From Minisyncoccia bacterium (GTDB lineage Bacteria > Patescibacteriota > Minisyncoccia > UBA6257 > 2-01-FULL-56-20), in assembly GCA_050015515.1 (NCBI GenBank), contig JBEKBG010000003.1, forward strand, positions 6,871-70,870: a stretch of DNA of 64,000 nucleotides. Direction: 5' to 3'. Positions within the stretch are counted from its first letter, which is position 1. Each line of letters opens with the position of its first letter. The notes beneath the pieces are model-generated. The model was not told the origin of the DNA and ran no database searches. It saw only the letters and a list, made by a program, of their open reading frames with translations. The translations under genes and the position numbers were made by a program. This document shows positions 25,123-25,509 of the stretch, piece after piece.

Positions 25123-25509
25123 ATGAAAAAAGATTTTGATGGCTGGAACATTCAGAAAGAAATTTTGCATAATAATTTTAGTATCCCTTTTTACAAAGAG
25201 CGCGATATCTGGTTTTGTTATTTAGGAGTAAATATCGGTCGTGAGGAGGATGGCAGTCCATCCACATTTCTTCGCCCAGTCGTTGTTTTGAGGAAATTCA
25301 AAAATGGCACCTTCTTTGGTGTTCCACTCACGCATACGCCACGATTTGGGAGAAATTATTTTACGGTCATCGACCGCCACGGGACAAGCTTCGCCATGCT
25401 TGCGCAAGGACGTATTCTAGATGGAAGAAGACTTTATTATCGATCGAGGGTTATGCCCCAAAATGATTTCGAATCACTGAAGTTGCGCTTTCTTTTGGGC
25501 ATTCTTTAA
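25123..25509 (+). CDS. MazF/PemK-family toxin-like endoribonuclease (orphan; no cognate antitoxin gene recognised)
   Basis: PemK/Kid-like core RDIWFCYLGVNIGREEDGS...RPVVVLRKFKNGTFFGVPLTHTP; ATG 25123 preferred over TTG 25099. Confidence 0.65.
   Translation: MKKDFDGWNIQKEILHNNFSIPFYKERDIWFCYLGVNIGREEDGSPSTFLRPVVVLRKFKNGTFFGVPLTHTPRFGRNYFTVIDRHGTSFAMLAQGRILDGRRLYYRSRVMPQNDFESLKLRFLLGIL

Follow-up and report, generated by a model that had tools for sequence, protein, structure and literature searches.

A predicted convergent small RNA accompanies N-extended MazF-like toxins in candidate-phyla-radiation bacteria and on Campylobacter plasmids

The canonical type II modules MazEF, PemIK and Kid-Kis combine a toxin of the MazF fold with a protein antitoxin, and the toxin depends on a catalytic arginine and threonine (R25 and T48 in BsMazF, R29 and T52 in EcMazF). 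RNA antitoxins occur in two other kinds of module. In type I systems such as par Fst RNA I/RNA II of pAD1 and, in B. subtilis, TxpA/RatA and BsrG/SR4, the toxin and small RNA genes are transcribed convergently and overlap at their 3′ ends or share a bidirectional terminator, the small RNA has by far the stronger promoter, and the toxins are hydrophobic peptides of fewer than 60 aa. In the type III systems ToxIN and AbiQ-antiQ, an endoribonuclease of the wider MazF/Kid/CcdB-like fold is partnered by a structured RNA antitoxin, and ToxI-type antitoxins are tandem repeats that lie upstream of the toxin gene on the same strand. An RNA element known as the pemK RNA motif is reportedly associated with MazF/PemK genes. 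At the E. coli mazEF locus, an antisense transcript, aMEF, has a stimulating effect on expression of what is a complete type II pair (PMC8749433). Finally, the plasmid pVir of Campylobacter jejuni 81-176 is reported to carry a type I pair, cjrA/cjpT, with CjrA described as an antisense sRNA and type I antitoxin in those passages of PMC10470494 and PMC7826846 that relate the work of Shen et al. 2016.

Here, we describe a locus that resembles each of these systems in part. It lies in a window of 64,000 nucleotides (the whole stretch of DNA that was analysed) from a contig of a Minisyncoccia bacterium. Its toxin-like protein shares the fold, the catalytic Arg/Thr pair and the GxEQ and QxR motifs of the type II toxins, but it has an extra conserved N-terminal helix, no MazE/AbrB/RHH gene accompanies it here or in ~88 relatives, and its partner is a predicted RNA gene on the opposite strand. 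Convergent transcription, a 3′ overlap or shared terminator and a stronger small RNA promoter, all predicted here from sequence, would be as in the type I systems, whose short hydrophobic toxins nevertheless differ from the 128-aa soluble RNase fold encoded here, and the small RNA does not have the 5′ complementary repeats of par. The combination of an RNase of this fold with a structured RNA recalls type III, although the RNA is single, non-repetitive and convergent. Unlike aMEF, it does not face a complete type II pair. Coordinates of all features in the window are given in Table 1.

Table 1. Features of the MazF-like locus and its surroundings, in window coordinates
Feature	Position	Strand	Basis or remark
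atpA	20971-22497		upstream of atpG
atpG	22520-23455		upstream of MazF-like module
347-aa ORF	23604-24647		between atpG and module; N-terminal hydrophobic segment
Structured element, ~280 nt	24712-24995	.	closed by 31-nt inverted repeat; lineage-restricted
Second promoter copy, TTGACT-16-TACACT	25008-25035	-	points away from toxin gene into 280-nt element
Putative -10 box of toxin gene, TATGCT	25109-25114	+	8 nt before ATG; conservation
MazF-fold toxin-like gene, 128 aa	25123-25509	+	ORF, homologs, Foldseek, profile, alignment
Predicted small RNA, ~62 nt, three hairpins	25508-25569	-	terminator scan, fold, covariation, covariance model
Small RNA terminator U-run	25516-25508	-	ends on toxin TAA (25507-25509)
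Small RNA hairpin P1	25536-25518	-	followed by U-run
Small RNA hairpin P2, UUCG loop	25549-25540	-	followed by CGA linker
Small RNA hairpin P3	25569-25553	-	predicted start A25569, ~7 nt past -10
Sigma-70-type small RNA promoter	25576-25603	-	-35 TTGACG 25603-25598, 16-nt spacer, -10 TATCCT 25581-25576
A/T-rich UP-element-like stretch, ATTAAAAAATCATTAAAGGTTAT (minus strand)	25604-25626	-	upstream of -35
55-aa Lys-rich ORF	25641-25808		downstream of toxin gene and of a second short GC-rich stretch
atpD	25853-27285		downstream of 55-aa ORF; followed by atpC

The toxin-like gene sits between atpG and atpD, where a GC-rich non-coding stretch separates it from the 347-aa ORF; this upstream GC-rich structured region and the downstream 55-aa ORF had both been noted in a preliminary description of the sequence, and both are indeed present, the latter in the window's ORF list. 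The same atpG/atpD slot (23455-25853 in the window) holds the module in L022 (3241-4874; 84% identity), in the P0003 contig, in L021 (2782-3570; Yonathbacteria, 43%) and in L086 (3385-4670; 42%), and the module splits the ATP synthase operon even where the toxins are only 42-43% identical. What stands in place of the 347-aa ORF varies: the P0003 contig encodes a protein of 798 aa there, and L022 lacks a large ORF. A promoter-like site for atpD (TTTGCA-18-TACAAT) is found at 25812-25841 in the window. In five other loci (L001, L004, L007, L023 and L025) the toxin gene occupies a scpA/dnaX slot, and other relatives carry it in many further genomic positions. In total, we collected ~105 loci encoding toxin relatives; the RNA model counts given below refer to 89 non-redundant loci.

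The preliminary description had read the ORF, listed in the window as 25099 or 25123 to 25509 (+), as a MazF/PemK-like toxin with an unusual ~25-aa N-terminal extension. The protein is 100% identical to one NCBI Minisyncoccia MAG protein and has 53 homologs of 128-136 aa. The suggested Pfam search placed the window protein under the cut-off for PF02452 (E 1.6e-3; 19 bits against 23.1), and NCBIfam, PADLOC and single-sequence PDB searches with it returned nothing. However, most homologs have a precomputed PF02452 match, and a family profile of 48 homologs matched B. subtilis MazF/EndoA (4mdx; E 1.6e-6), aligning R51-P52 with the catalytic R25-P26 of BsMazF and T70 with T48. R51 is invariant and T70 at least 90% conserved in the alignment of these homologs (A1); the profile match sets them against VRPV and IT of 4mdx, and GxEQ and QxR are likewise conserved motifs. 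An AlphaFold (AF2) model of the protein (pLDDT 84) was compared to the PDB with Foldseek, and the best 50 of 94 matches at E ≤ 0.001 were all MazF/Kid/EndoA (E 1.7e-6; TM 0.64-0.75). Because the homologs' PF02452 matches, the profile match to 4mdx and the structural comparison agree, we regard the assignment to the MazF/Kid SH3-like barrel fold as solid at the level of a modelled structure; judging from its sequence, the protein is presumably toxic. A decaying module, one of the possibilities raised earlier, is contradicted by the full length and the conserved catalytic residues.

The N-terminal extension is conserved as well. The identical NCBI protein and most homologs have lengths of 128-134 aa and start MKKDF; among the 48 homologs, W8 and K12 are invariant and M1, K3, D4 and F5 nearly so. 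The ~25-residue extension is present family-wide, with a helix predicted at residues 5-17. As this extension is a conserved family trait, ATG 25123 is supported as the start. The start had been called poorly supported; the weak Shine-Dalgarno sequence stands, and the ambiguity between TTG 25099 and ATG 25123 falls away in favour of the ATG. The putative -10 box of the gene is conserved as TAT.CT, invariant in a seven-sequence alignment (A6) in which the bases around it vary, and its position so close to the ATG suggests a leaderless or very short-leader mRNA, which would account for the missing Shine-Dalgarno sequence. Elsewhere in the window, at 14324-14380 (+), a promoter with a UP element, TTGACT and TATGAT, of the same type as that of the small RNA described below, lies 6 nt upstream of an ATG, suggesting that such mRNAs are common in this organism. 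The MazF-like family is large: when it is clustered at 50% identity, a threshold of E ≤ 1e-30 yields 378 clusters and one of E ≤ 1e-10 yields 1925.

As the preliminary description had stated, the window's ORF list shows no MazE/AbrB/RHH ORF preceding the toxin gene. Clustering of ORFs among ~88 loci gave no common ORF family flanking it, and among the small ORFs on the same strand, 69 of them upstream and 56 downstream, Pfam identified no MazE or AbrB; the Pfam matches obtained were to ribosomal proteins, NUDIX, DnaJ, methyltransferases and one CopG/BrnA ORF. The neighbourhood comparison of homologs proposed earlier has thus been run, and it yielded no shared protein partner and, instead, a conserved small RNA after the stop codon. 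The 55-aa ORF, which had been suggested as the antitoxin of a reversed-order pair, has no family match and is missing from relatives whose toxins are 76-84% identical to that of the window, and we reject such a pair for this absence; the ORF is either strain-specific or no gene at all.

The other neighbour of the toxin gene is the 280-nt structured element. Its identity among close relatives reaches 90-99%, against diverging flanks; it occurs in five related lineages and carries compensatory changes, one of them being CTAGG/CCTAG for CCGGG/CCCGG in L102. Rfam gave nothing at E ≤ 1 across window positions 23400-26200. Next to it is a duplicate of the small RNA promoter region, visible as a direct repeat (25031-58 and 25599-626; 82% identity), and the -35 and -10 of this copy are conserved in relatives. 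One could therefore read either this element or the 55-aa ORF as the antitoxin, as both adjoin the toxin gene and the element is highly conserved, covarying and supplied with a copy of the small RNA promoter. Against this, the element was confined to the closest atp-linked clade and was missing from all of ~165 other family loci, the scpA-dnaX and other toxin contexts included, so it is not the general, conserved partner of the toxin family, and the 55-aa ORF fails in close relatives as described above. We consider it very improbable that either one is the antitoxin.

The conserved partner lies between the toxin gene and the 55-aa ORF, in a stretch that the preliminary description had passed over. 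A block directly 3′ of the toxin stop codon is conserved in 13 loci of differing genomic context. When this block is read on the minus strand, TTGAC and TAT..T are invariant and the 16-nt spacer between them is variable (alignment A9). Of 83 loci, 78-83 have TTGACA or TTGACT as the -35 and about half have a TG extended -10, with spacers of 16-17 nt; the UP-element-like stretch is conserved as GTCAAA..TTTAATGATTTTTTAA in 12 lineages, and this motif also stands before an ORF at 14324-14378 of the window. The promoter of the same type at 14324-14380, 6 nt before an ORF, supports reading it as genuine in this organism. The transcript that it would produce is a short RNA of three hairpins, whose pairing is well supported by covariation: 98.7% of cells were paired, with compensatory changes in 9/20 pairs and a score that 0 of 500 shuffles attained. 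In an alignment of 95 sequences, 98.6% of cells were paired versus 73.7% in shuffles, a score matched by 0/500 shuffles, and all seven pairs of P1 covary. The RNA body (P2, CGA linker and P1), including UGGCUUCGGCC, is conserved in sequence among toxins that are only 36-45% identical. Taken together, these features predict that the toxin locus carries, on its opposite strand, a separate gene for a small RNA.

More distant members have a related organization. Their RNA begins with a single-stranded 5′ (U)ACAAAU, followed by a GGC-UUCG-GCC hairpin, the CGA linker and a 7-bp GNRA-capped hairpin; a long terminator hairpin then overlaps the final 21-31 nt of the toxin ORF. With A- and U-rich flanks on either side, this hairpin could be used as a bidirectional terminator. 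In the window, by comparison, the small RNA and the toxin ORF overlap by only ~2 nt. Rfam produced no relevant match at gathering score in 25 loci, and no Rfam match, to the pemK motif or to any other relevant family, ties the RNA to a described element in the window (E ≤ 1) or in L015 3380-3520 (E ≤ 10). A repeat search of 24400-25900 revealed no tandem-repeat array. Complementarity between the RNA body and the toxin translation start was looked for and not found (mean z 0.08), nor were par-like repeats. A short peptide encoded by the small RNA (AUG in ACAAAUGGC) was considered and rejected, as this AUG is ACG in several loci and is absent in the window clade.

We also considered a plus-strand reading of the block, as the terminator or 3′-UTR of the toxin mRNA followed by a promoter of the next gene, with no separate RNA gene at all. 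A location directly past the stop codon suits a terminator, and folding energy does not discriminate the strand, as the plus strand folds equally well. We dropped this reading because GTCAA/A..ATA with its variable 16-17-nt spacer is TTGAC/TAnnnT on the minus strand, and because the loops are UUCG (66/83 loci) and GNRA (52/72), canonical on the minus strand only, with a U-run as the tail on that strand. Moreover, the plus-strand hairpins in the window have no U-run behind them, leaving the toxin mRNA without a terminator of its own, and the pVir counterpart described below has a mapped transcription start site and a Northern signal. We give the plus-strand reading almost no weight.

To follow the small RNA across genomes, we used two covariance models: R1, made from 13 sequences, and R2, made from R1 matches. 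In the window, R1 matched 25505-25603 (-) with E 7.9e-22. A minus-strand R1 match was found within -8 to +12 nt of the toxin stop codon in 58 of the 89 non-redundant loci, and R2 placed a minus-strand RNA abutting the stop codon in 83-84 of them. For a test in the reverse direction, blind to the toxin, metagenome contigs were scanned with an RNA 20-mer (AAAYGGCTTCGGCCCGACTC), giving at least 120 matches. From these, 80 loci were fetched, and 76 had enough sequence for the test; a convergent MazF-like ORF was present in 70/76, mostly 31-38 nt away. Viral contigs gave 0 matches to the 20-mer. The gene described earlier as an orphan toxin is accordingly one half of an RNA-partnered MazF module, and the preliminary suggestion that it may be a solitary, domesticated toxin is unlikely given how near-obligate the RNA partner is. 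Judged from sequence, the pairing of toxin-like gene and RNA recurs in hundreds of candidate-phyla-radiation (CPR) bacteria and on Campylobacter plasmids.

In three of the six loci without an intact MazF-like ORF, a remnant of the toxin C-terminus was found beside the small RNA motif: L113 (1630-1649), L148 (3072-3091) and L175 (311-330). In L148, a hicAB pair stands in the place of the toxin. Retention of the RNA beside a toxin remnant fits an antitoxin outliving its toxin. Further RNA-model matches adjoin paralogous N-extended MazF-like genes on the same contigs. For example, “EIWWC”-type paralogs lie by the first module in L037 (3386-3851), L044 (98-583), L050 (1165-1633) and L059 (3160-3670), each with its own convergent copy of the small RNA, showing that several modules can occur per genome. 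In L010, a 172-aa PemK-domain gene (3368-3886) is located 1.1 kb upstream of a family member, and a weak match to the small RNA model (3772-3864; E 6.4) falls in the region of this second gene.

Family members are also found on plasmids of Campylobacter, Helicobacter and Nitratiruptor (Campylobacterota), and one of them has published transcript data. On pVir, pVir0047 (CJJ81176_RS08830; 30634-31038) aligned to the family profile over its full length, including the N-terminal extension (hhalign probability 99.5%, E 6e-23, 123 aligned columns, 33% identity). It is the sole toxin annotated on pVir, has no adjoining annotated antitoxin, and faces a convergent TTGATT-17-TATAAT promoter with hairpins that end at its stop codon. 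From the pVir sequence we predicted a transcription start at ~31119. In the published dRNA-seq data, a very strong start site at 31119(-) has 16164 reads, compared with 28 for the toxin start site at 30608 (Dugar et al. 2013, PMC3656092, Tables S5/S12), and an sRNA, CJpv3, of 77 nt (31119 to 31043) gave a Northern blot signal (Dugar et al. 2013, PMC3656092). The published start of CJpv3 coincides exactly with the predicted position, the ratio of RNA to toxin expression is ~600:1, and the RNA ends 5 nt from the toxin stop codon. We strongly infer that cjpT is pVir0047. Like the window locus, the pVir0047 locus consists of a solitary N-extended toxin gene facing a convergent sRNA. Unlike the CPR small RNA, CJpv3 has a different number of hairpins and different loops, the two sequences are not alignable, and R2 detected no homology between them (E 0.22); the setting also differs, as CJpv3 comes from a conjugative plasmid, in a proteobacterium-like lineage that has been cultured, and the other RNA from a CPR chromosome.

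On this evidence, we think it probable, with some reserve, that the locus is a type I-like module in which an antisense RNA is the antitoxin to a toxin of the MazF fold. Among the four possibilities raised in the preliminary description, an RNA antitoxin is the best supported, although the RNA lies at ~25508-25603 (-) and not, as had been proposed, at 24650-25100. The RNA would presumably neutralise the toxin, most plausibly through antisense pairing. Transcribed convergently from a strong, near-consensus promoter, the small RNA would be abundant and presumably short-lived; it would pair with the 3′ end of the weakly transcribed toxin mRNA in the manner of type I systems, and so hold the toxin in check. 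In most family members, both transcripts would share the bidirectional terminator hairpin, which spans the terminal 21-31 nt of the toxin ORF. In the window, the toxin mRNA, which has no terminator, is assumed to read through the whole small RNA region, and pairing depends on this read-through because the overlap with the ORF is so short. Upon loss of the small RNA, the RNase would be freed.

Against antisense pairing, the RNA body is conserved far beyond the need of a purely cis-antisense role. Its lack of complementarity to the toxin start leans towards protein binding, as in a type III-like arrangement in which the MazF-like dimer is bound directly by the small RNA, its pseudo-substrate or its inhibitor, and antisense pairing is secondary; the conserved N-terminal helix may then be an RNA-binding adaptor. 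Type III toxins (ToxN) themselves have a MazF/Kid-like fold. In most loci, the RNA body lies outside the transcript overlap yet is strongly conserved in sequence, with UGGCUUCGGCC, the CGA linker and the single-stranded 5′ (U)ACAAAU as the conserved parts, and the N-terminal extension and the RNA co-occur throughout the family. On the other hand, the RNA is not a tandem-repeat array, and it is convergent where ToxI precedes its toxin gene on the same strand. Sharing of a bidirectional terminator is a hallmark of type I, and the literature passages cited above present the pVir RNA as an antisense antitoxin of type I. We regard the type III-like arrangement as rather unlikely. A bolder combination, in which the N-extended MazF toxins (a large, so far unrecognised class of ~1900 clusters at 50% identity) and a dedicated small RNA that binds the N-terminal helix form a hybrid of types I and III, is similarly doubtful; if true, tiny-genome CPR bacteria keep several copies of such a system, even inside essential operons (atp).

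It is less probable still that the protein is a domesticated, non-toxic RNase, with the small RNA as its substrate, cofactor or co-regulated product in a housekeeping ribonucleoprotein. The gene does lie in or by core operons (atpG-atpD in the window, L021, L022 and L086; scpA-dnaX in L001, L004 and L007), the genomes are reduced, and the linkage between protein and RNA is tight. However, the family is patchy in distribution and variable in genomic position, several paralogous modules occur per genome, members are found on Campylobacterota plasmids, the RNA persists beside toxin remnants, and promoter strengths are asymmetric, reaching the ~600:1 expression ratio on pVir. Patchiness, paralogs, plasmids, remnants and promoter asymmetry are typical of selfish toxin-antitoxin modules, and we retain the type I-like module as the favoured reading.

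Annotation pipelines call genes of this kind “type II PemK/MazF toxin,” and they then appear as orphans. According to our results, an entire branch of the MazF superfamily is accompanied by a small RNA, conserved but missing from annotations, and not by a protein antitoxin. The clusters of this branch number in the hundreds to thousands; most are from Patescibacteria/CPR, and others are on plasmids of the three Campylobacterota genera. The comparison ties the single case studied by experiment, pVir CjrA/CjpT with CJpv3, to this very large family. There is probably one experimental precedent for an RNA-partnered MazF of this kind; the breadth of such modules, the structure of their RNA and their predominance in CPR bacteria appear not to have been described previously. 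We supply a covariance model for the new RNA family, and pVir of C. jejuni offers a cultivable system for studying RNA control of a MazF-type RNase. More generally, calls of “orphan toxin” in reduced genomes may conceal RNA partners.
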